Source: Betaproteobacteria bacterium (GTDB lineage Bacteria; Pseudomonadota; Gammaproteobacteria; Burkholderiales; JACQAP01). From it: a DNA stretch of 49,326 nucleotides. The stretch spans positions 1-49,326 of the forward strand of contig JANXVW010000264.1 of NCBI GenBank assembly GCA_025351455.1, read 5' to 3'. The translations under genes and the position numbers were made by a program. Shown here piece by piece: positions 35,457 to 46,163 of the stretch (positions are counted from its first letter, which is position 1; each line of letters begins with the position of its first letter). The notes under the pieces were generated by a model that saw only the letters and a program-made list of their open reading frames with translations, searched no databases and had not been told where the DNA came from.

Positions 35457-36401
35457 TCACAGACTCAGAATGCGCAATTCCAGCGCCTTGCCGACCGCCT
35501 GCGCGCGATTGACCACGTTGAGTTTGCGTAATATTTTCTGCACATGATTCTTGACTGTCAGAGGACTGATGTTGAGGATGGCGCCGATCTCGAAATTGCT
35601 TTTCCCCAGATAGATCCATCTCAGGATTTCCCGCTCCCTGGGCGTGATGGTGCTCGTGCGCGCCGGTTTGGGAACATCATTGCCTCTGGCGCGCCCGTTC
35701 ATGCGGCTGCGTATCCAGGCCGCATGCAGAAACGGCACCACCAGTTGCACGAAATAGGCCTGCCGGTGCGTGTCCGCTCCCGGTGCGCAGGCAAATATGA
35801 AGAAACTCGCCGCCGCGCCTTCGGCGTCATGGGTCCCGTGGGCGACGACGTGCGTTGCCCCTGCCCGCTCCAGTTCCCTTGCGAATGTGCCCCCGGCCAA
35901 CGCGCTCAGGTCTGCCAACGCGCAAACCACGGGACGAAAGCGGCGCTCTTCCCATGCCTTGATGAAGCCAGGGGCAGCCGGTGCATCGCGCAGGAAAGCT
36001 TCGCTGAAGATTGCAGGGTCCGCCGCGTTCATGGCAAAGCTGTCAACGGAAAGCGCGATCCCTTCACCGCCGCGCAGTGCGCAGACCAGCACTTCATGCC
36101 TGATCAGGCTTTGCAGCAGGCCCTGGGTCCAGCTGAAGAAGTGCGGTCGCGAATGCACCCTGACGGAGTTCTCCATGTTTAGTATCAGGCACTCCTGCTC
36201 GACGGCGTACAGCGACTGCCCGGAGTCCGCCGTGACGTCTTTTTCCGCGGCCGGATCGGCGGCAAGTGCGGCCTCGGGTACATAGTGCTGCGTCATTTTG
36301 GGTGTGATCAGTTGCATCGCGCCTTTACCGTCGGAAGCCAGAAGGGGGTGGGGAAATGGTTCGCCTGCGGTTTGCATGAAAAGGGAATGGCTATCCGTCA
36401 T
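35457..36401 (-). CDS. epsA: LuxR-family regulator EpsA (PEP-CTERM/EPS associated)
   Basis: 'HFFSWTQGLLQSLIRHEVLVC'; HTH 'TPREREILRW...GKSNFEIGAILNISPLTVKNHVQKILRKLNVVNRAQAV'. Start uncertain. Confidence 0.85.
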   Translation of the reverse strand: MTDSHSLFMQTAGEPFPHPLLASDGKGAMQLITPKMTQHYVPEAALAADPAAEKDVTADSGQSLYAVEQECLILNMENSVRVHSRPHFFSWTQGLLQSLIRHEVLVCALRGGEGIALSVDSFAMNAADPAIFSEAFLRDAPAAPGFIKAWEERRFRPVVCALADLSALAGGTFARELERAGATHVVAHGTHDAEGAAASFFIFACAPGADTHRQAYFVQLVVPFLHAAWIRSRMNGRARGNDVPKPARTSTITPREREILRWIYLGKSNFEIGAILNISPLTVKNHVQKILRKLNVVNRAQAVGKALELRILSL

Positions 36402-36583
36402 GTGCGACGCGGCGCGCGCGCAGTCACGTTCACGATTCGGGAAGACATTCCGCTGCGTAGTCCAATGGGGCTATCGCACAAGCTTTCGCGCTGCATCAAG
36501 GGGCACCTCGTCTGTTCTAAGCTGTCTGCACATCGGGATCCTGACGAAATCATTTATCTACTCTCACTCTTCTCACTCTCACT

Positions 36584-37999
36584 GTGCCGACCATTCCACC
36601 CTTGCCTGCCTTCCACGATGCCCAGCCCCGTCTGTCGCTCAGCAAGCTCGGCCTTGTCGCCCTGCTGCGTAGCGCGATCGATCCGGCGGTAGCGATCGGC
36701 ATCCTCGTCATCTCGGCGCTCTGGTTCGAAGGCCGGTTCGATGGTCCCTACCTGATTCTGGCGCTGCTCGTGTTCCCGATGACGTATCCGAACAGCCTGC
36801 CGCGCGGCGCTTCCGACTCCGGCGCCCTGGTGCGCAACGTCGTAACGGGGTGGCTCTCCATGATTGCGTTGTTGATGCTGATCGGATGGGTTTCGGGAAC
36901 GCTGAATGCATTCGACCAGCGTGCGATCCTTGCATGGCTTGTCGTCACCCCGCCGGCACTGTTCGCGGCCCACCGCCTGATCGGAGCGGTCATGCCACGA
37001 ATGCTTGCTGCCGAAGGCCTGCAACGCACCGCCGTCATTGCGGGAGCGAATGAGACAGGATGCAGACTCGCGGAGCGCATAGCGGCCAATCCGTTCCTCG
37101 GAACCCGGGTATCCGGTTACTTTGACGACCGAGGAACGCAACGGATGGATCATTTGCGCCGTGGCCCCAGTCTTGGCTCACTGAGCCAGCTCGCCGAGTA
37201 CGTGAAAGCCCATCACGTCGACCTCATCTATATCGCGCTGCCGATGGCTTCGCAGCCCCGCATCCTGAGGTTGCTGGAGGAACTCCACGATACGACCGCT
37301 TCGATCTATTTCGCTCCGGATGTTCACTTGTTCGACCTGGTGCAGGCGCGGGTCGACACCATCGGAGGCTTGCCCATCGTTGCCGTGCGCGAATCGCCTT
37401 TCTACGGCGCCGATGGCCTGATCAAGCGCGCGAGCGACATCGTCCTTGCGTCCGCCATCCTGCTGGCCATCTCGCCGCTGATGATCGCCATCGCGATCGG
37501 CATAAAACTGAGTTCGCCGGGTCCCGTCCTGTTCAAACAGCGCCGTTACGGACTCGATGGCCGGGAAATCGTGGTCTACAAATTCCGCTCCATGAACGTG
37601 CTCGAGGATGGAGACGTAATCCGGCAGGCAACGCGCGGCGATCAGCGCGTGACGCGTTTCGGGGCATTTCTGCGTGCCTCGTCTCTCGACGAGTTGCCGC
37701 AGTTCATCAACGTGCTGCAGGGGCGCATGAGCGTCGTCGGCCCCCGTCCCCACGCCGTAGCCCACAACGAGATGTACCGCAAACTCATTCGCGGCTACAT
37801 GATCCGCCACAAGGTCAGGCCCGGCATTACCGGCCTGGCCCAGGTAAACGGGATGCGCGGCGAAACCAGTTCGATCGACAAAATGCAGATGCGCGTCGCA
37901 TACGACCTCGCCTACCTGCGGAGCTGGTCGTTGTCGCTCGACCTGCAGATCGTACTGAAGACGATCGTCGTGGTGCTGAGGGCGCGGAATGCTCATTGA
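36584..37999 (+). CDS. epsB: Undecaprenyl-phosphate glucose phosphotransferase (EpsB/WcaJ)
   Basis: 'KRASDI', 'FKQRRYGLDG', 'KFRSM', 'SLDELPQFINVLQGRMSVVGPRP', 'KVRPGITGLAQVNG'. Confidence 0.93.
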   Translation: MPTIPPLPAFHDAQPRLSLSKLGLVALLRSAIDPAVAIGILVISALWFEGRFDGPYLILALLVFPMTYPNSLPRGASDSGALVRNVVTGWLSMIALLMLIGWVSGTLNAFDQRAILAWLVVTPPALFAAHRLIGAVMPRMLAAEGLQRTAVIAGANETGCRLAERIAANPFLGTRVSGYFDDRGTQRMDHLRRGPSLGSLSQLAEYVKAHHVDLIYIALPMASQPRILRLLEELHDTTASIYFAPDVHLFDLVQARVDTIGGLPIVAVRESPFYGADGLIKRASDIVLASAILLAISPLMIAIAIGIKLSSPGPVLFKQRRYGLDGREIVVYKFRSMNVLEDGDVIRQATRGDQRVTRFGAFLRASSLDELPQFINVLQGRMSVVGPRPHAVAHNEMYRKLIRGYMIRHKVRPGITGLAQVNGMRGETSSIDKMQMRVAYDLAYLRSWSLSLDLQIVLKTIVVVLRARNAH

Positions 38000-38006
38000 G
38001 ACCATT

Positions 38007-38699
38007 TCAGGCCGCATCCGTCCGATAGCGATAGCCGAGTCCGCGCACCGTCTCGATCGCCTTGTCGTGTCCGGTGGGAGCCAGGCCCTGGCGCAGCCTG
38101 CGGATGTGGACGTCCACGGTGCGCTCTTCGACAAACGCATCATGGCCCCATATCTCATCGAGGAGCTTGGCCCGGCTGAAGATGCGGCCGACGTGGGTCA
38201 TGAAGAAATGAAGCAAACGAAACTCCGTGGTCCACAATTCGATTTCGCAGTCACCAGCCGTAATGCGGCGCGACGCCGGGTCAAGCTGGAGTCCCGCGAT
38301 CTCGATCACGTCGTCCGCCAGTTGCGGCGCGCGCCGGCGCATGACCGCCTTGATGCGTGCAAGCAACTCGCGACCGGAATACGGTTTTGTTACATAGTCG
38401 TCCGCTCCACCCTCCAGCGCCGCCACCTTGTCCTGCTCATCTGCGCGCTCGCTGATCAGGACGATCGAAATGTCGCGGGTACGCTGGTCGCTGCGAAGCC
38501 GGCGCGTGAAGGGCAGGCCGGGAATCCCGGGCAGCACCCAATCGAGCAGCACCAGATCGGGACGCCCCTCGCGCATGAGGACCTCGGCCTGGGCGACGTC
38601 GCCAGCGCAACGTACCTTGTATCCGGAACTCTGAAGATTGGCGGCCAGCAACTGCCGGGCCGGCGCTTCGTCTTCAACTACGAGAATCGAGCCGTACAT
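38007..38699 (-). CDS. PhoB-like OmpR-family response regulator (orphan paralogue)
   Basis: 'LLDWVLPG', 'GADDYVTKP', 'EFRLLHFFMTH', 'ERTVDVHIRRLR'. RBS AAGGAG before ATG 38699. Confidence 0.85.
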   Translation of the reverse strand: MYGSILVVEDEAPARQLLAANLQSSGYKVRCAGDVAQAEVLMREGRPDLVLLDWVLPGIPGLPFTRRLRSDQRTRDISIVLISERADEQDKVAALEGGADDYVTKPYSGRELLARIKAVMRRRAPQLADDVIEIAGLQLDPASRRITAGDCEIELWTTEFRLLHFFMTHVGRIFSRAKLLDEIWGHDAFVEERTVDVHIRRLRQGLAPTGHDKAIETVRGLGYRYRTDAA

Positions 38700-38815
38700 G
38701 GTGGACTTCTCCTTGATCATGGAATTCCCGAAGGCATCCCTGTGCGCCCCGCTCATTTTTGATTGCGGCCGTGGATCCCTGCGTACGACTACGGGAATTT
38801 GACCCGACCATCGTA
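38700..38815 (-). other. Conserved structured 5' leader, copy A
   Basis: Homologous to 41060-41166 and 42736-42836; ends in a cUUCGg hairpin followed by CCAUGAUCAAGGAG. Confidence 0.6.
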
Positions 38816-38821
38816 GAGGTG

Positions 38822-38864
38822 ACTATCCGCCCGCGTCGCCGGACGGTCCGTGCGCTTGCGCACA
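38822..38864 (-). promoter_or_regulatory. Putative class II CRP/FNR-type promoter, copy A
   Basis: Palindrome CGTGCG-CTTG-CGCACA (38849-38864), centre 29.5 bp from the first base of a minus-strand GATAGT (38827-38822). Confidence 0.65.
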
Positions 38865-39181
38865 TAACCGGGAAAAGAAAAAAAGCGTCTGCTGGGATTC
38901 GCGGCATCGTCGCGACCTGCTTGCCCGCCTCCCCATTCAATCCTGCATCGCTGCCCGTGCAGCCGTGCCGAGGGTAAGGCGTTATCCCCCGAACGCAGCG
39001 CAACTGCATGGCACTATTTGACGCGGCGTGCCACCTCGTGCGGCCATACGCTGCACGTCCATGGAAAACACGGGACAGGATTTTGGCCGGCCGAACGGCC
39101 GGCGGCGATCATGCGGCACATTGCCGCGTCATGATCTTGCTGCTGACCAAGCCGGCTGCTAGGCGCTTCTCCGGGGGATTT

Positions 39182-40297
39182 TCATGGCTGTCCCGGCGGG
39201 AGCATCGGGATCGAGACGGATACCGTCGTACCGCGGCCGGGCACACCGTGGATGCTTACCTCGCCGTCAAAAAGCTGCGCGCGTTCCTGCATGCCCAGCA
39301 GGCCCAGCGATTCGCGGCCGAGAATCTGACTATCCGTTATTCCGATGCCGTCGTCGACCACCGCGAGCTTGAGAACATCCGCGGCAATGCTCAGGTTCAC
39401 CTCGACGCTGTTCGCCTTTGCATGGCGCGCGATGTTCGTCAGGATTTCCTGGAATATCCGGAATACGGCCGTCGATAATTCCCTGTCCAGCTCCACCTGT
39501 TCCTGCGGAAGCTTGAGCCGGCAACGCATTCCCATGCGCTTCTGGAATTCATTCGCCTGCCAGCGGAAGGCCGCCACCAGGCCCATGTCGTCGAGAATTT
39601 CCGGCCTCAGGCCGGTCGAAATCCTGCGGATGAGGTGCATCGTCGAGTTGATGAGCTGGCTCATGGCTTCGGCCTTCTCCACGAGCTGCTCCTCGGTTCC
39701 GGCGAGGCGTTTAGCCAGCCAAGTCACGTCCATCTTGAGACCCGTCAGCACCTGGCCCAATTCGTCGTGGATTTCGCGCGCAATCCGGGCGCGCTCTTCT
39801 TCGCGGATTGAAATCAGGCGCGCGGCCAGCGCCCGCAACTGCACTTCCGACTCCCGCAATTGCTCTTCCGCGACTGTCCTTTCCTTGATTTCGTTGGTCA
39901 GCGCGGCGTTCTTCTTGTGCAAATCGACGAATACGGACACTTTCGATCGCAATACCTCCGGCACGAACGGCTTGGTCAGGTAATCCACCGCCCCGACTTC
40001 GTAGCCGCGAAATGCGGATTCCATTTCCATCGATACGCCGGTCAGGAAGATGATTGGCGTGTAGCGGGAGCGCTCGCGCGAGCGGATCAGCCTGGCGGTT
40101 TCGAAGCCGTCGATTCCCGGCATCCGAACGTCGAGGAGAATCACTGCAAGGTCGTGCTCGAGCACCATGCGCAGTGCCTCTTCGCCGGACTGCGCGCGCA
40201 GCAGGTTCTGTCCGAGTGGCTGCAGCAATGCCTCGAGCGCCAGCAGATTCCTGGGTTCGTCGTCGACCATGAGAATGTCGGCTTTCCAGTTCTCCAT
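39182..40297 (-). CDS. Hybrid receiver domain + HisKA_3 histidine kinase (no sensor domain)
   Basis: 'ILMVDD...ILLDVRMPG...YLTKP'; 'EERARIAREIHDELGQ'; 'FRIFQEILTNIARHA'; 'DDGIG'; 'LGLLGMQER'. Confidence 0.88.
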   Translation of the reverse strand: MENWKADILMVDDEPRNLLALEALLQPLGQNLLRAQSGEEALRMVLEHDLAVILLDVRMPGIDGFETARLIRSRERSRYTPIIFLTGVSMEMESAFRGYEVGAVDYLTKPFVPEVLRSKVSVFVDLHKKNAALTNEIKERTVAEEQLRESEVQLRALAARLISIREEERARIAREIHDELGQVLTGLKMDVTWLAKRLAGTEEQLVEKAEAMSQLINSTMHLIRRISTGLRPEILDDMGLVAAFRWQANEFQKRMGMRCRLKLPQEQVELDRELSTAVFRIFQEILTNIARHAKANSVEVNLSIAADVLKLAVVDDGIGITDSQILGRESLGLLGMQERAQLFDGEVSIHGVPGRGTTVSVSIPMLPPGQP

Positions 40298-40410
40298 GCG
40301 CGTCCCGCGTTGTGGTTGGTCGATTCGTCCGCACCCTCGCCCGACTGCCGGACTTCCGGACTTCCGCGAAAGATACCCTGTCTGCGCAGTCTGTGCGCCT
40401 GGAACAAACA

Positions 40411-40440
40411 AAAAAAAGGACCCACGCTCGGGTCCTTTTT
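40411..40440. terminator. Intrinsic (bidirectional) terminator
   Basis: AAAAAAAGGACCC-ACGCTC-GGGTCCTTTTT downstream of the 40514-41059 gene. Confidence 0.8.
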
Positions 40441-40513
40441 AATTTCGTTGGAAGGATGGTCAGTGCATCGCTATGCGGCGTGATCTGCTTTCACCTTCCC
40501 GAGTACCGCATGG

Positions 40514-41059
40514 TTACGAAGGGGATTGCGCACCCGTGCATCCGCTCGCAGTATTGCGCGTCCCCGTGAACTGGGTGGTACCCGTGCAAGTGAACGTGGA
40601 AGGGGCATCCCCAACGTAACTCCAGTTCGAGGTGCCCGAAAAACCGTTGCAATCCGACGCGACGGTGGAAGTGAGCGAATTGATTGTCGTGATTCCGCCC
40701 CGCTCCGGGAAACTGCCCGACCAGCTGGCCGCGTCTCCCTTGATCGTCCCTTGAAAGGTCGTCGGCGTGGCAGTGTTGGTCCGCTCCCCTGATACAGTGA
40801 GGGCATTGCCGGTCTGCGTGATCGTCACCGGATAGGTCGCCAGCGCATTGCCGGGCGGCATACATTCCGGAGCGGGCGACGTTATTCCTGTTTCGGTAAT
40901 CGTCCACACACCGGCAATGTTGCCAATCGGCGCCGGCGTTGCTGCGGGCGCTGCCGGTGCCGCATCACCTCCGCCTCCACCGCATCCAGCCACAACAGCA
41001 GCCAGCGATACTGCAATCAACCAACTCAGAGGCCTGAAAACATTTCCGAAGCTATTCAT
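40514..41059 (-). CDS. Hypothetical Thr-rich lipoprotein
   Basis: Lipobox 'VAGC-GGGGG', Ala/Pro linker, beta-rich Cys-containing domain. RBS AGGAG before ATG 41059. Confidence 0.7.
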   Translation of the reverse strand: MNSFGNVFRPLSWLIAVSLAAVVAGCGGGGGDAAPAAPAATPAPIGNIAGVWTITETGITSPAPECMPPGNALATYPVTITQTGNALTVSGERTNTATPTTFQGTIKGDAASWSGSFPERGGITTINSLTSTVASDCNGFSGTSNWSYVGDAPSTFTCTGTTQFTGTRNTASGCTGAQSPS

Positions 41060-41166
41060 AAAATTTCTCCTGGTCATGGGATGCCGAAAGACATCGTTAT
41101 GCGGCTGATTCGTTACTGCCGCCAGAGTCTGCGCACGGCACCGAGGTTTTGGCCCCGAGCGTCGTA
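41060..41166 (-). other. Conserved structured 5' leader, copy B
   Basis: Hairpins GCGGC...GCCGC and GAUGUC-UUUC-GGCAUC, then CCAUGACCAGGAG; homologous to copies A and C. Confidence 0.55.
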
Positions 41167-41172
41167 ACGATG

Positions 41173-41215
41173 ACTATCCGGATCTGTCGCGCACCTTTCT
41201 GTGCGGTCGCGCACA
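41173..41215 (-). promoter_or_regulatory. Putative class II CRP/FNR-type promoter, copy B
   Basis: Perfect palindrome TGTGCG-GTCG-CGCACA (41200-41215), 29.5 bp from a minus-strand GATAGT (41178-41173). Confidence 0.7.
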
Positions 41216-41270
41216 TAATGTGAAAAGAAAAGTTCGATAGCGTACTTAGCCGTTCATCATCGACGCGTTA

Positions 41271-41286
41271 TGTTCGCTGTCGCACA
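41271..41286. promoter_or_regulatory. Additional upstream palindromic site
   Basis: TGTTCG-CTGT-CGCACA followed by TAAC as in copy A; centre is 71 bp from the copy B site. Confidence 0.5.
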
Positions 41287-41421
41287 TAACCCGGATGCTC
41301 GGTCTCTTTGTTACGCAGAGATGACTGAACATCTTGCTCACCTATCCCGACGTTTCGTATGACAGACGCAGCATTGGGCGAGCGTGCAGAGAGCACGCGG
41401 CCGGGAGGACGCAGTCCCGTC

Positions 41422-41457
41422 TCTCTATATATCTTTGGCTGTCTCTATATATCTTTG
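41422..41457. repeat. Direct repeat, 16 bp unit, 20 bp period
   Basis: TCTCTATATATCTTTG at 41422-41437 and 41442-41457. Confidence 0.85.
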
Positions 41458-41800
41458 ATTGGGGCACACATCGGTCAAAGCATGCGGCAAAAAATGATGC
41501 TCGAGCTGAAGCCCGATCCCCAAAAGTTGTACCGACATCTCAAGCGCATATTCGGTCACCGAGGCGCGATGCCTTCGTGCACTGGCGCACAGACGCGGAA
41601 AGAATTCGGTGGCGTTTTGGGTACAAAGACAAGTGGACCCGAACGTGACGCGACGATTTGAGTGGCAGGGCTTCCCGAATGAATAACGCGGGAATACGGG
41701 TAGCGATCTAGCTGGTGTCGCCTTCTCCAACCGCCAACGCAGGTTGGGAAGACGCGAATAAGCAATACGACACCGTAGATTCAGCAGAAAAGCAGGCTCT

Positions 41801-41840
41801 AAAATAAAAAAAGGACCCGGTCCGGGTCCTTTTTATTTTT
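41801..41840. terminator. Intrinsic (bidirectional) terminator
   Basis: AAAATAAAAAAAGGACCCGG-T-CCGGGTCCTTTTTATTTTT downstream of the ice-binding gene. Confidence 0.85.
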
Positions 41841-41892
41841 GCGAGTTCAGGTTTTCCGGATCGGCGTTCAGCCTGTCCGGTTACCCTTGCTG

Positions 41893-42735
41893 TTACGGTC
41901 CGACGGCGTTTTGGTCAAGACTGACCGCTGTGCCTGCGAACAGTCTGCCGTTTATGGTTGCGCCAGTTTGCATCCCGATCGATGTTTGAGACAGGATGGT
42001 CCCCTTGAATTTCGAGGTCGTGTTGAGGCTCGCGGCAGCGAAGGTCGCCCAGTAAATGTTCTGCGGCAAGGCGCCGCCGGCGAGGATGATCTGCACGCCG
42101 GGACTAACCGTGAGGCCTTGCGCGATCTGAAAGATCCAGACATCGTTGGGGCCGCCTGTAAGCGTGAGATTCGACGCGATGAGAACGCCGGAGCTCCATT
42201 TGTAAGTAGCAGGGGCGAGATTGAGGCCGCTGATATTGCCGGCTCCAAGTTCCGTGTAGTCGGGTGCCCGACTGTTGGCATCGGTGTACGCGGTTCCGGC
42301 GTCGTTTACCGCGGTGGTCAACGCCGAAGAATCAATAAACGAACATGCCGCAATATTAGCGCCGCCAGCTGTTGCTACGTGTATCGGCGTCGCCGATGAT
42401 CCCGTCACTTCCGGACAAGTCAAGCCAGTGACAAAAGTACCCGCTGCTGGGGACAAACCTACTTCACCGGTAATAGCTGAAGTCGGAACATCTGAAACTG
42501 CCGATTGCGCCAAAATTCTGAAATTGGCGGCCGACCCCATGATAACGGGTGCGGGACCCCGGCCCGCGCCGCCTACGCCTGTACCTTGACCAGGAGCATT
42601 CCCCGCTCTTGAGGAGGGAAACCCATTCCCGCCCCCACTCCCACTACCACTACTACCACACCCAGCTACGGCAACGGACAATAGCAATGCGGGAATCAAC
42701 GGCATTAGCTTCGATAAGCTTCCGAATCTATTCAT
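41893..42735 (-). CDS. Ice-binding family (DUF3494) lipoprotein
   Basis: Lipobox 'VAGC' + Gly/Ser linker; 'FRILAQSAV...ITGEVGLSP', 'LGAGNISGLNLAPATYKW', 'VWIFQI', 'NIYW', 'GRLFAGTAVSLD'. Confidence 0.9.
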   Translation of the reverse strand: MNRFGSLSKLMPLIPALLLSVAVAGCGSSGSGSGGGNGFPSSRAGNAPGQGTGVGGAGRGPAPVIMGSAANFRILAQSAVSDVPTSAITGEVGLSPAAGTFVTGLTCPEVTGSSATPIHVATAGGANIAACSFIDSSALTTAVNDAGTAYTDANSRAPDYTELGAGNISGLNLAPATYKWSSGVLIASNLTLTGGPNDVWIFQIAQGLTVSPGVQIILAGGALPQNIYWATFAAASLNTTSKFKGTILSQTSIGMQTGATINGRLFAGTAVSLDQNAVGP

Positions 42736-42836
42736 AGGTCACTCCTGATCATGGAATCCCGAAGGTCTCGGTGTGCGCCCAGGAAATTCCGGCCGCGGAT
42801 CCCTACGTGCGGTGCCAGGGCGGCACCGTGCATATG
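42736..42836 (-). other. Conserved structured 5' leader, copy C
   Basis: CGGUGCC/GGCACCG hairpin, a middle hairpin, a cUUCGg hairpin, then CCAUGAUCAGGAG. Confidence 0.6.
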
Positions 42837-42842
42837 CTGGAG

Positions 42843-42885
42843 ACTATCACACTTCAGGGGGAGCCAGTCGGTACGCTAGCGCAAA
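42843..42885 (-). promoter_or_regulatory. Putative class II CRP/FNR-type promoter, copy C
   Basis: GGTACG-CTAG-CGCAAA (42870-42885), 29.5 bp from a minus-strand GATAGT (42848-42843). Confidence 0.6.
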
Positions 42886-43118
42886 TCAGACTGAGACAAA
42901 CGCTGGAATACCCGCCAGGTCCGCCCAGTCGCACGGTGATTATCTGGATTAAATGCGATCAGCATGTTATTCATTTATCCCGTAATTTCAAAAAATACGA
43001 TTCGCAATTTGATCCAAAAGGAGGCGTCCTACAAATCGATTTTCGACTTGTTGACTTCTTGCATCGCACAAGCCATAAACGTGAAACGAATCAGCTTCCA
43101 GGCCCCTCCAAAAAAAAC

Positions 43119-44936
43119 ATGAACGAATCGCGAATCCTCTATTCCATCGTCCCGACCAACCCCGAAGCCCACTTGTTCGAAGTCCGCTGCACCGTCGACA
43201 ATCCGGATCCACGGGGCCAAACGTTCTCCTTGCCGACGTGGATTCCGGGCAGCTACCTGATCCGTGAATTCGCCAAGCACGTCGTGCGCATCCGCGCGCA
43301 CAGCGGCCGCAAGCTGCTGAGGCTGGTGAAACCGGACAAAAACACCTGGCAGGTCGAGCCGTTCGAAGGGCCTGTGACTCTGACGATGGAGGTCTACGCC
43401 TGGGATCTGTCAGTGCGTGGCGCGCATCTCGATACGACACACGCCTTCTTCAACGGTCCCGCCGTCTTTCTGCAAGTCGAAGGACGCGTGGACGAGCCGG
43501 TCGAAGTCGAGATCCTGCCGCCCAAAGGCGCGAAATACCGGAACTGGGGCGTGGCCACGGCGATGCGGCGCAAAGGCGCCAGGCCCTATCTGTTCGGCAC
43601 CTATGAAGCGGCGGACTACGACGAACTGATCGACCATCCGGTCGAGATGGGCACGTTCGAGCTGGCGACGTTCAGGGCCGGCGGCGTGCAGCACGACATC
43701 GCGATCACCGGCCGGCATCGCGCCGACATGCGGCGGCTCACGAAAGACCTGAAGACGCTATGCGAAACCCAGATCGCATTCTTCGGCACTCCCGCGCCGA
43801 TGGATCGTTACGTATTCCTGGTGACCGCGGTCGGTGACGGCTACGGCGGCCTGGAGCATCGCGCTTCGACGGCGCTGATCTGCGCGCGCAATGATTTGCC
43901 GCATGAAGGCATGGACAAGCCGAGCGGCGGCTATCGCACGTTTCTCGGCCTGGCCAGCCACGAGTATTTCCACACCTGGAACGTCAAGCGCATCAAGCCC
44001 GCCGCTTTTACCCCTTACGACCTCGATCGCGAGAATTACACGACGCTGTTGTGGGCCTTCGAGGGCTTCACCTCTTATTACGATGATCTGCTGCTCGTGC
44101 GTTCCGGGCTCATGCCGCGCGGCACTTACCTCGAAACCCTGGGCCGCAATATCACCACGCTTCTGCGCACCAGCGGCCGCAAGAAGCAGACGGTCGCGGA
44201 GTCGAGCTTCGATGCGTGGATCAAGTACTACCGCTCGGATGAAAACATGCCGAATGCCGGCGTCAGCTATTACGGCAAAGGCAGCCTGATCGGGTTGAGC
44301 CTCGACCTGATGATCCGCAACCAGACCGGCGGACGAAAATCGCTGGACGACGTGATGCGCGCATTGTGGAAACGCTACGGCATGACAGGAATCGGCGTCC
44401 CGGAAGATGGCATCGAAAAGATCGCCGAACAGGTGACCGGCGTGAAGCTCAAGCGCTTCTTCGACCAGGCGGTGCGCTCTACCGCAGACCTGCCGCTGCA
44501 GAAATTGCTGGATACGGTCGGCGTCGATATGGTGCTGAGGCCGGCGCGCTCAGGCGTGGATCGCCGTGAACGCAAGCCGACCCGCGCGGAACTCGCGGCC
44601 GATCGCGGTGTGGCGCTCGGCATTCGCACCGGCAGCGAAGGCGGGAACGTGCGCATCACGCACGTACTCGATGGCGGAACCGCCCAGCAGGCCGGGCTGT
44701 CTTCCGGCGACGTCGTCATTGCCATGGATGGACTGCGCGTCACGCTGGACAACTTCGAAACCCAGTTGTCGCGTTACAAGGCCGGCCAGATCATTACGCT
44801 GCACACGTTCCGTCGCGATGAACTCCATGTCGTGAACGTGACGTTGGCCGCCGCCAGGCCGGATGCCTGGTCGCTAACTGTCAACGACGATCCCGCCGGG
44901 GCCCGCAATCGCAAGCGCTGGCTTCATACGGATTAG
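43119..44936 (+). CDS. M61 glycyl aminopeptidase with C-terminal PDZ domain
   Basis: 'LPTWIPGSYLIREFA', 'GGLEHRAST', 'HEYFHTWNVKRIKP', 'EGFTSYY'; PDZ 'AQQAGLSSGD'. Start reassigned to ATG 43119. Confidence 0.93.
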   Translation: MNESRILYSIVPTNPEAHLFEVRCTVDNPDPRGQTFSLPTWIPGSYLIREFAKHVVRIRAHSGRKLLRLVKPDKNTWQVEPFEGPVTLTMEVYAWDLSVRGAHLDTTHAFFNGPAVFLQVEGRVDEPVEVEILPPKGAKYRNWGVATAMRRKGARPYLFGTYEAADYDELIDHPVEMGTFELATFRAGGVQHDIAITGRHRADMRRLTKDLKTLCETQIAFFGTPAPMDRYVFLVTAVGDGYGGLEHRASTALICARNDLPHEGMDKPSGGYRTFLGLASHEYFHTWNVKRIKPAAFTPYDLDRENYTTLLWAFEGFTSYYDDLLLVRSGLMPRGTYLETLGRNITTLLRTSGRKKQTVAESSFDAWIKYYRSDENMPNAGVSYYGKGSLIGLSLDLMIRNQTGGRKSLDDVMRALWKRYGMTGIGVPEDGIEKIAEQVTGVKLKRFFDQAVRSTADLPLQKLLDTVGVDMVLRPARSGVDRRERKPTRAELAADRGVALGIRTGSEGGNVRITHVLDGGTAQQAGLSSGDVVIAMDGLRVTLDNFETQLSRYKAGQIITLHTFRRDELHVVNVTLAAARPDAWSLTVNDDPAGARNRKRWLHTD

Positions 44937-44991
44937 GGCTTTCCACCCAATACAGATACCCTACGCGCGAAGCAAGTCGGAGTACCCTTTT

Positions 44992-45216
44992 AGGCACAGA
45001 GGGCACGGAGGACACGGAGAAGGGCAATGAAAGTGACGAACGGTATCAGTGGAAGGAAATATTGTGGCTGTAGCTATACTCACAATTGAAGCTAACCGTT
45101 GAGTCAGACATTTTCCAATTGTCCGTTAATATTCCACGGCTGCCTCAACCTCCGCCTATCGATCGTCCAGCATCTTTCCTTTGTTTTTCTCCGTATCCTC
45201 CGTGTCCTCTGTGCCT
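44992..45216. repeat. 30-bp inverted repeat with 9-nt internal periodicity, flanking a 165-bp AT-richer spacer
   Basis: AGGCACAGAGGGCACGGAGGACACGGAGAA (44992-45021) vs TTCTCCGTATCCTCCGTGTCCTCTGTGCCT (45187-45216); 28/30 complementary. Confidence 0.85.
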
Positions 45217-45234
45217 CCGTGTCGGGTGGAGGTA

Positions 45235-45957
45235 TTAAAGGACTATTTCGGAGCGAAGGCGCGCGATGGTGGGCAGGAGGTTGAGGCCGGTGCGGGACTT
45301 GAGTTTTTGGGCGGCGGAGCGCAGGTCGTCAAGCGCGCGGCGAATCGGTGCGCCAATCTTTGCAATCACGACGGTATTGGCGTCGCACGGCGGCAATGCC
45401 ACTACGCGATCGTCGAAGGCTTTGCGGATGGGATCGGCATTCGGTTTGTTCCGCGCACGGCTGAGCATGTTGGTCACCATCATGCCGCCGCCGGCAAGCC
45501 GCGCCCGGCACATGCGGTAAAACGGTGAAGTGTGCAGCCTGCCCGCGCTGCCATGGGCATCGAAGCCATCGACCAGGATGAGATCGAACCGGCGGCGCGT
45601 CGTTGCCATGTACTTGTACCCGTCCCCGATTTCGATATGCAGGCGCGCCGATTCTTCCGGTAATTCAAAAAACTGCCATGCGTTCAGGACCACCTCCGGA
45701 TCGATCTCCACCACGTCGAGTTTTGCTTTCGGGAAGTAGCGATGCAGAAAGCGTGTGATCGACGCCGCGCCGAGCCCGACCTGCAGCACGCTGCGCGGCC
45801 ATTCCTGACTCCGCGGCAAGAGCAACGGCACCATCATTTCGCGGGTGTAGTCGAGTTCGAGCGCCCAGGTGCGCGAGAGCCGCATCGCGCCCTGGATCCA
45901 ATGCGGATCGAACTGCAAATAACGCACACCGCGTTCTTCGTTGATACGGATGGGCAT
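45235..45957 (-). CDS. Spermidine-synthase-like SAM-dependent methyltransferase
   Basis: 'WIQGAMRL...LELDYTREMM', 'LQVGLGAAS', 'VVEIDPEV', 'DLILVDGFD'. Confidence 0.85.
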   Translation of the reverse strand: MPIRINEERGVRYLQFDPHWIQGAMRLSRTWALELDYTREMMVPLLLPRSQEWPRSVLQVGLGAASITRFLHRYFPKAKLDVVEIDPEVVLNAWQFFELPEESARLHIEIGDGYKYMATTRRRFDLILVDGFDAHGSAGRLHTSPFYRMCRARLAGGGMMVTNMLSRARNKPNADPIRKAFDDRVVALPPCDANTVVIAKIGAPIRRALDDLRSAAQKLKSRTGLNLLPTIARLRSEIVL

Positions 45958-46163
45958 GTGGGTGGCGGAATTAGAAAGGGCGGAATACTACCTAATACTT
46001 GCAACCATTACACCCGCACGGTTGGGTGTAGACAGGTATTTGATGAGGCTGCTGGCAGATGCCGATGCAGGCCCGGTAGCGAAGGCGGCGAAAAGGATAT
46101 AAATTGAACGCAGTACAGCCCTGTCATCGCCCAAGGTCGCCTCACAAAAAAAGGAAGCGCGTC

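Follow-up and report, generated by a model that had tools for sequence, protein, structure and literature searches.

What regulator serves the three similarly organized promoters that lie on one strand of a 49,326-nt contig from a Betaproteobacteria bacterium (GenBank assembly GCA_025351455.1, contig JANXVW010000264.1)? This contig, C197 in our numbering, is referred to here in its full length as the window. An initial annotation had noticed a palindrome in front of each of three genes, encoding a response regulator, a lipoprotein of unknown family and an ice-binding-like lipoprotein, and had assigned them to a mini-regulon of a CRP/FNR-type activator. We analyzed the window together with the remainder of its genome (3.94 Mb in 353 contigs, 60.8% G+C; labelled G000) and with related genomes, labelled G001, G007, G010 and so on. 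We consider it likely that the palindromes, or boxes, are sites of an uncharacterized subfamily of Crp/Fnr regulators, which would activate about 30 promoters, including the three in the window, by a class II-type mechanism.

All three transcription units are on the minus strand, and the geometry described for their promoters proved to be exact, with palindrome centres at 38856.5, 41207.5 and 42877.5, each 29.5 bp from the first base of a GATAGT hexamer. The gap between palindrome and hexamer is 21 nt at all three sites, and the hexamer occurs 823 times (as GATAGT or ACTATC) in the 3.94-Mb genome. The elements are as follows; scores refer to the position weight matrix (PWM) introduced below.

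38849-38864: box 1 (CGTGCGCTTGCGCACA; CGTGCG-CTTG-CGCACA), promoter of the PhoB-paralogue response regulator, PWM score 27.1
38822-38827, minus strand: -10-like GATAGT (ACTATC on the plus strand), 21 nt downstream of box 1
41200-41215: box 2, proximal (TGTGCGGTCGCGCACA; TGTGCG-GTCG-CGCACA), promoter of the lipoprotein of unknown family, PWM score 27.7
41173-41178, minus strand: -10-like GATAGT (ACTATC on the plus strand), 21 nt downstream of box 2
41231-41246: middle box, marginal on its own (AGTTCGATAGCGTACT), centre 31 bp upstream of that of box 2, PWM score 13.9
41271-41286: distal strong box (TGTTCGCTGTCGCACA, flanks TTA/TAA), centre 71 bp upstream of that of box 2, PWM score 29.9
42870-42885: box 3, degenerate (GGTACGCTAGCGCAAA; GGTACG-CTAG-CGCAAA), promoter of the ice-binding-like gene, PWM score 14.0
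42843-42848, minus strand: -10-like GATAGT (ACTATC on the plus strand), 21 nt downstream of box 3

The middle and distal boxes had not been annotated before; with them, the lipoprotein promoter carries three boxes, and the distal one has the second-best PWM score in the genome. The three sites agree in geometry but are unequal in strength: boxes 1 and 2 score 27.1 and 27.7 and box 3 only 14.0.

The box is not confined to the window. The pattern TGTGCG-N4-CGCACA, allowing at most one mismatch, matched the genome 30 times, and 21 of these matches were intergenic according to an in-house, crude dicodon gene caller that called 87% of the genome coding. Control patterns, with spacers of N3, N5 or N6 or with everted arms, gave only 1 to 3 intergenic sites among 11 to 17 matches each. 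From the intergenic matches of G000 we built a symmetrized 24-bp PWM with the consensus tTaTGTGCGcTaGCGCACAgA, which finds 29 sites with a score of at least 18, all of them intergenic. Because the matrix was trained on intergenic matches, the non-circular evidence comes from the control patterns and from the cross-genome tests described below. The matrix specifies C at position 5 (+1.49 bits, compared with -4.65 for A) and G at position 6; the central four bases (cTaG) are conserved as well, and the fourth half-site base (G, T or A) is the most variable. Such a genome scan had been suggested earlier, and its outcome, a box found genome-wide in about 30 promoters, makes a regulon of three genes too narrow.

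The position of the box relative to the promoter is equally regular outside the window. Box flanks are mostly asymmetric, one being TA and the opposite one GA, and 24 site sides could be oriented by the GA flank alone. An nAnnnT hexamer starts 21 nt after the box in 15 of these and 22 nt after it in 6 (21 of 24 together), compared with an average of 0.77 at other offsets and no peak on the opposite side. The hexamers include GATAGT, CATAGT, CACACT, GATGAT and GACAAT, and by manual count 21 of the 24 oriented sides are followed by a co-directional open reading frame that starts 26 to 200 nt further on. Positions directly after the box read GA-n-C, meaning that only the GA of a TTGACA element is kept. 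If the hexamer is the -10 element, the box would be centred at -41.5 or -42.5 and would end at -34, with the GA at -33/-32. A class II CRP site, such as that of E. coli galP1, is a TGTGA-N6-TCACA sequence centred at -41.5. In 21 of the 24 oriented sites, 29.5 or 30.5 bp separate the box centre from the start of the hexamer, a geometry that would correspond to the class II architecture proposed for the window promoters. At none of the three window sites did a scan for the sigma-70 consensus call a promoter, which is what dependence on an activator would predict. Sigma-54 and extracytoplasmic function (ECF) sigma factor promoters were considered by eye and rejected, since no TGGCAC-N5-TTGC is present and the symmetry of the palindrome indicates a dimeric factor.

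We propose that a dimeric regulator of the Crp/Fnr family, with the N-terminal motif NxLLAALP and the recognition helix GVRREGVTE, would bind these palindromes. Its site would end 21 to 22 bp before a weak -10 element, which would place the centre near -41.5, and the promoter-proximal end would overlap a vestigial -35 element of which the GA at -33/-32 is kept. Because the predicted site lies near -41.5, next to a weak -10 and a vestigial -35, the regulator would most likely activate through a direct RNA polymerase contact like those that CRP, FNR and NtcA make at class II promoters. The same regulator and box might instead mediate repression, with an operator that overlaps the -35 and excludes RNA polymerase in the absence of a releasing signal. 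Such a role would fit a box that spans -49 to -34, if GATAGT is the -10, and Crp-family proteins under self-regulation can repress. A repressor, however, needs no fixed distance from the -10, whereas 21 of 24 oriented sites keep 21 to 22 nt, and these promoters have no usable -35. Furthermore, tandem boxes are placed ~31 bp upstream at the lipoprotein gene and ~41 bp upstream at C277:20410/20451, similar to the class I/III activator positions known from E. coli CRP. We therefore regard repression as unlikely and retain class II-type activation as the preferred reading.

As had been stated earlier, the regulator is not encoded in the window; the candidates reside on contigs C10, C277 and C148. 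The genome has nine matches above cut-off to the DNA-binding domain HTH_Crp_2 (PF13545), and we inspected eight. Five of them form a subfamily (C10:3406, C10:2639, C277:17119, C277:26456 and C148:2677) with the N-terminus NxLLAALP and the helix GVRR(E/V)GVT. Two others are classical Crp-type proteins with an SRExxSR helix (C251:23430-24188 and C210:4917-5567), and one, on C88, is of FNR type (helix ETVSR); TTGAT-N4-ATCAA sites are present in the genome. Two subfamily genes adjoin boxes: C10:3406-4140 (57.2 bits to PF13545, cut-off 27) is divergent from the box at C10:4243, and C277:17119-17841 (61.9 bits) lies 118 nt downstream of the box at C277:16985. Their products are 43% identical. The subfamily comprises two helix types, RREGVT(E/A) and the NtcA-like RRVGVT(R/K), often encoded in tandem, and its members fall into two paralogue sets, C10:2639-3481 with C277:17119-17841 and C10:3406-4140 with C277:26456-27502 and C148:2677-3477.

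Orthologues of the regulator, 68 to 81% identical, are found in many beta- and gammaproteobacterial records, with hosts that include Cupriavidus necator, Variovorax paradoxus, Collimonas, Propionivibrio, Dyella, Halomonas, Methylomonas and Thiocystis. We scanned 79 loci (481 kb) around such orthologues with the PWM trained on G000 and observed 114 boxes with a score of at least 18, distributed over 61 of the 79 loci, with the box within ~3 kb of the orthologue. In contrast, 20 second-order Markov shuffles of the same loci yielded a mean of 0.15 boxes and a maximum of 1. Boxes peak 100 to 300 bp upstream of the regulator start, 34 of the 79 loci having a box within 300 bp, and a second peak is located directly after the regulator stop; two or three regulator-like genes are present in 35 loci. 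The factor postulated initially, a Crp/Fnr-family protein with the variant half-site TGTGC, is thus the best candidate, given that Crp-family genes adjoin boxes and that 61 of 79 foreign loci carry the box.

Within the genome under study, 4 boxes with a score of at least 18 lie on contig C10 (19.7 kb) and 7 on contig C277 (27.7 kb). The two contigs constitute regulon islands, each combining two regulator paralogues with genes for GGDEF/EAL proteins, a hybrid kinase, a DUF4331 protein and a type III polyketide synthase, and similar clusters occur in G021:C11 and G027:C1/C4. That many boxes reside in islands (C10, C277, G021:C11) could mean that the box belongs to an unrelated regulator family and that the Crp-type genes are its neighbours merely by sharing a mobile island. 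A PadR-type protein might be considered, as this family binds ATGT-N10-ACAT, and the conserved central cTaG is unusual for CRP sites. Nevertheless, the regulator gene is consistently found beside the box throughout 79 loci from many genera, Crp-family sites typically have both the 16/22-bp TGTG-N8-CACA geometry and the -41.5 position, and we judge an unrelated family to be very unlikely.

The subfamily regulator has the expected fold. Its AlphaFold2 (AF2) model (pLDDT 86, pTM 0.84) joins a beta-roll sensor domain, a long dimerization helix and a DNA-binding domain in a single Crp fold, and Foldseek aligns it to MtbCRP, GlxR, FNR and NtcA with TM scores of 0.72 to 0.78 over 200 to 228 columns at 13 to 20% identity. 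In the profile alignment, the helix RREGVTE stands opposite SRETVNK of GlxR and TRVTVTR of NtcA. The Arg-Glu pair of GlxR is kept, and Glu replaces its Lys at the third specificity position. In structures of CRP bound to DNA, it is the Arg-Glu pair that recognizes the two G:C pairs of TGTG; its retention, together with Glu at the third position, fits a conserved TGTG with a changed fifth base. The box might alternatively be bound by one of the two classical Crp-type proteins, on C251 or C210, rather than by the RREGVT subfamily. TGTGC and TGTGA are only one base apart, both classical proteins keep the R-E...R triad, and the genome encodes 12 to 13 class III cyclase domains, one of them on C210. 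However, boxes cluster beside genes of the RREGVT subfamily both here and in 61 of 79 foreign loci, and the genome PWM list contains no box with a score of at least 14 on either C251 or C210, which leaves a classical Crp-type binder quite unlikely. An exact TGTGA-N6-TCACA sequence is present once in the genome, in coding DNA.

Whole-genome comparison gives a noisy link between box excess and regulator. Among 31 related genomes, counting boxes at no more than one mismatch and regulator presence at E ≤ 1e-30, the mean excess of boxes over a reversed-pattern control was 8.9 where the regulator is present (18 genomes) and 2.4 where it was not found (13 genomes); since these genomes are kin, the comparison does not amount to a statistical test.

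Phylogenetic footprinting further showed that box and hexamer are kept as a unit. In front of orthologues of the response regulator gene, a box scoring 12.5 to 26.9 is followed after 21 nt by GATAGT, TACAGT, CAAGCT or CAAAGT in G017, G018, G001, G010, G014, G015 and G007; across these same-genus and same-order genomes the spacers diverge while box 1 and the -10 are retained. Likewise, box 2 and a GATAGT at 21 nt are kept in G017 and G018 despite a diverged spacer, and G017 also has the three-box arrangement (middle box 14.8, distal box 25.8). Orthologues of the ice-binding-like gene carry strong boxes in G010 (27.2 and 21.9), G014 (21.8), G001 (25.9 and 25.0) and G021 (26.9). In four relatives this gene adjoins a regulator paralogue, at the following loci.

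G010:C48:14773-17361: ice-binding-like gene and regulator paralogue
G014:C203:4624-6300: ice-binding-like gene and regulator paralogue
G007:C104:43794-45421: ice-binding-like gene and regulator paralogue
G021:C11:71648-73683: ice-binding-like gene and regulator paralogue

Because its orthologues keep strong boxes and adjoin a regulator paralogue, the third gene belongs to the conserved regulon despite the decayed box in the window.

The likeness of the three window promoters extends well beyond the box. The regions align over ~200 nt at 74% mean column identity. This alignment begins ~50 nt ahead of the palindrome and runs to the start codon, taking in a ~110-nt 5' leader and, before the start codon, CCATGAYCAGGAG. 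The promoters are hence paralogous promoter-leader cassettes, with leaders at these positions.

38700-38821, minus strand: 5' leader copy 1, from the cassette alignment
41060-41172, minus strand: 5' leader copy 2, from the cassette alignment
42736-42842, minus strand: 5' leader copy 3, from the cassette alignment

A profile search with nhmmer found the leader nowhere in the genome except in these three copies, and orthologous copies exist in relatives. Since a single cassette was duplicated, the identical GATAGT and spacing are partly inherited and do not represent three independent events. The identical geometry, earlier taken as a regulon signature, is accordingly exact but owes part of its identity to duplication. 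Taken further, the likeness might come from cassette triplication alone, with at least site 3 being a decaying relic devoid of regulatory function. The 74% identity over ~200 nt including the leader and the restriction of the leader to these copies would suit this account, as would the score of only 14.0 at site 3 and a sigma-70-like match, TTGAAA-16-TAACAT, at 42991-42964 on the minus strand. This match, ~230 nt upstream of the ice-binding-like gene, could drive that gene without the degenerate box 3. On the other hand, box and -10 of sites 1 and 2 have been kept in relatives while their spacers diverged, and orthologues of the third gene retain strong boxes; we consider triplication alone a very unlikely explanation.

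The leader itself is common to three functionally unrelated genes. A structured RNA was considered and rejected, as RNAalifold on nine homologues gave only -1.39 kcal/mol and 5 pairs; an Rfam scan of 36000-46000 at E ≤ 1 returned no match. A hairpin with a UUCG-like loop before CCATGAYCAGGAG and the ribosome-binding site can be seen by eye at a point where the alignment is out of register, and true compensatory changes in it, also judged by eye, are few.

The genes served by the three promoters, all of them monocistronic, are the following.

38007-38699, minus strand: OmpR/PhoB-type response regulator, 230 amino acids (Pfam Response_reg and Trans_reg_C)
40514-41059, minus strand: lipoprotein of unknown family, 181 amino acids, lipobox VAGC, monocistronic (from translation)
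41893-42735, minus strand: ice-binding-like (DUF3494) lipoprotein, 280 amino acids, lipobox VAGC, monocistronic (Pfam Ice_binding, E = 3.9e-57)

The response regulator passes the PhoB equivalog model TIGR02154 with 302.6 bits. Because a better PhoB, with 368 bits, is encoded at C157:440-1117, the window protein is a PhoB paralogue, as originally proposed. No kinase gene adjoins it on its own strand. A receiver-HisKA_3-HATPase hybrid kinase gene (39182-40297, minus strand) lies between the first and second units and is not preceded by a box; seven same-genus genomes keep it in synteny with the response regulator gene, and its product may be the partner of the PhoB paralogue. The 181-amino-acid lipoprotein has no match in Pfam or NCBIfam. 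Strong, terminator-like hairpins mark the ends of the lipoprotein unit (40413-40440) and of the ice-binding-like unit (41808-41834). Polysaccharide export and synthesis genes (Wzz, Poly_export, Bac_transf) are found around the three units in the window. A ~600-bp stretch at 41290-41890 holds no convincing gene and includes an AT-rich direct repeat, TCTCTATATATCTTTG, at 41422-41437 and 41442-41457 (period 20 nt); a weak box-like palindrome with a PWM score of 12.6 is found at 41576-41591.

Across the genome, the predicted regulon probably represents a signalling, envelope and stress programme. Its predicted enzymes of cyclic di-GMP (c-di-GMP) metabolism are a response regulator-PAS-GGDEF-EAL protein and a response regulator-GGDEF protein, and other predicted signalling targets are two PAS hybrid/sensor kinases, a HAMP protein and KaiC. 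Predicted envelope targets comprise a BON lipoprotein, another lipoprotein, DUF4331 and DUF3943 proteins and several small secreted proteins without a family, and the predicted enzymes include a type III polyketide synthase, a fatty-acid desaturase and a lactonase-like propeller. An FtsH-like protease, whose start is at least 385 nt from its box, is a less certain target. The regulator genes themselves are among the genes that bear boxes.

As to the signal that the regulator would sense, its match to the cyclic nucleotide-binding domain (PF00027, cNMP_binding) reaches 23.4 bits for C10:3406, below the cut-off of 27.5, and C277:17119 gives no match; precomputed Pfam assignments list PF00027 for many orthologues. 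A cyclic nucleotide might still be the ligand, because the genome has 12 to 13 class III nucleotidyl cyclase domains, the one on C210 accompanying a classical Crp-type gene. Among 80 orthologues, Cys142, His145, His146, Cys153, Cys219 and Cys221 are 97 to 100% conserved; an alignment of 31 sequences, among them two from the second paralogue group, shows no variation at Cys142 and His146 and almost none at the other four positions. In the AF2 model these residues lie where the long helix ends, where the helix after it starts and ahead of the last helix. They may form a metal or redox centre at the hinge that connects the dimerization helix with the DNA-binding domain. Since there is no Cys in the first 141 residues, as read from the sequence, the regulator lacks an FNR-type N-terminal cluster. 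An assignment as FNR was rejected, with no Cys before residue 142 and a box that differs from TTGAT-N4-ATCAA.

A bolder proposal, which we find doubtful as a whole, is that the subfamily would be a widespread master switch of dormancy, biofilm and envelope stress in beta- and gammaproteobacteria, sensing metal or redox state through Cys142, His145/146, Cys153 and Cys219/Cys221 and no cyclic nucleotide. RREGVTE and RRVGVTR/K paralogues may then heterodimerize on hybrid boxes such as TGTGCG-N4-CGTACA, and in the present lineage the switch would have captured the PhoB paralogue and two lipoproteins through cassette triplication. Hybrid boxes of this kind are common in other genomes. The half-site pairs G/A and G/T were counted 30 and 34 times, compared with 24.7 and 25.3 expected, in a set whose score threshold itself depletes A/A and T/T sites.

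Several observations weigh against activation of all these promoters by the RREGVT subfamily. Three genomes, G004, G013 and G016, have box excesses of 11, 9 and 7 even though no regulator was found in them at E ≤ 1e-30. The intergenic calls rest on imperfect gene predictions, as the crude caller missed the second window gene and truncated the third. Box 3 scores in a range (14.0) that overlaps that of chance matches in coding DNA, and position 2 of one of its half-sites does not hold the G that is almost invariant there. Candidate binders are the five subfamily paralogues as well as two classical RE..R Crp-type proteins, and a site that overlaps the -35 could equally well repress. With these points taken into account, we still hold class II-type activation by the subfamily to be likely.

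How does the proposed system relate to known ones? In several respects it is like E. coli CRP: a 16-bp core lies in a 22-bp palindrome with TGTG-N8-CACA, the centre is 29.5 to 30.5 bp from the -10 hexamer with a weak -35, as in class II promoters, and the candidate regulator has the Crp fold, an HTH_Crp_2 domain and the Arg-Glu pair in its recognition helix. It differs from CRP in that box bases five and six are CG, where CRP sites have A and any base, and the central cTaG is conserved. The third specificity position of the candidate regulator is Glu and not basic, its cNMP_binding match is below cut-off, and it has invariant Cys and His residues; we know of no such residues in CRP. Compared with solved Crp-family structures, it is only 13 to 20% identical.

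NtcA of cyanobacteria recognizes GTA-N8-TAC at -41.5 in promoters that lack a -35, and it is the best profile match in the PDB (2xgx, E = 6.2e-09) apart from one uncharacterized deposit. The promoters described here likewise lack a -35 and would be of class II type, some of their half-sites read TGTACG, and the helix of the second paralogue group, RRVGVTR/K, resembles TRVTVTR of NtcA. The dominant half-site TGTGCG, the proteobacterial taxa and targets without a link to nitrogen set the system apart, and an identity as NtcA was rejected at 21.8 bits to TIGR03697, whose cut-off is 244.95.

BerA (Bcam1349) of Burkholderia cenocepacia and Clp of Xanthomonas are c-di-GMP-responsive Crp-family regulators of exopolysaccharide and biofilm genes. 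By description, the present case is similar, as a Crp-family regulator in a beta- or gammaproteobacterium has GGDEF/EAL proteins among its predicted targets and the window adjoins polysaccharide export genes. Clp is among the structural matches of the regulator model (3iwz, TMq 0.60/TMt 0.69), and term searches of PMC5552954 and PMC3584217 found no box defined for BerA. The low-oxygen lxa regulon of B. cenocepacia is described with an Anr/Fnr-like motif, TGA-N6-TCA. It is also a stress-gene island that combines Crp-family regulators, two-component systems, an FtsH-like protease and a shared promoter palindrome (PMC3721108), as do the islands seen here. The lxa motif was rejected as an identity for the box, since the TGA-N6-TCA given in PMC3721108 is FNR-like and is not TGTGCG-N4-CGCACA.

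Our string and keyword search for the box itself (TGTGCGCTAGCGCACA, TGTGC-N6-GCACA) found no published description, its sole string match being an unrelated 3-hydroxypropionate-inducible expression system. At E ≤ 1e-10 the regulator has at least 8000 homologues, and the best 120 of them are named only "CRP-like cAMP-binding protein" or "Crp/Fnr family transcriptional regulator"; for the subfamily we found no specific name, published box or solved structure closer than 20% identity. Crp/Fnr action from -41.5 is textbook knowledge, and the regulator-box system is a new, uncharacterized representative of this well-known kind. The regulator is widespread in beta- and gammaproteobacteria, where, to judge from the genes behind the boxes, it probably switches on signalling, envelope and stress genes. 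In the genome studied here, the box joins an orphan PhoB paralogue, an ice-binding-like lipoprotein and c-di-GMP enzymes in one predicted circuit beside a polysaccharide export cluster. With a defined box, a predicted regulon and hosts that are in culture, among them Cupriavidus necator, Variovorax paradoxus and Halomonas, the system is directly testable.

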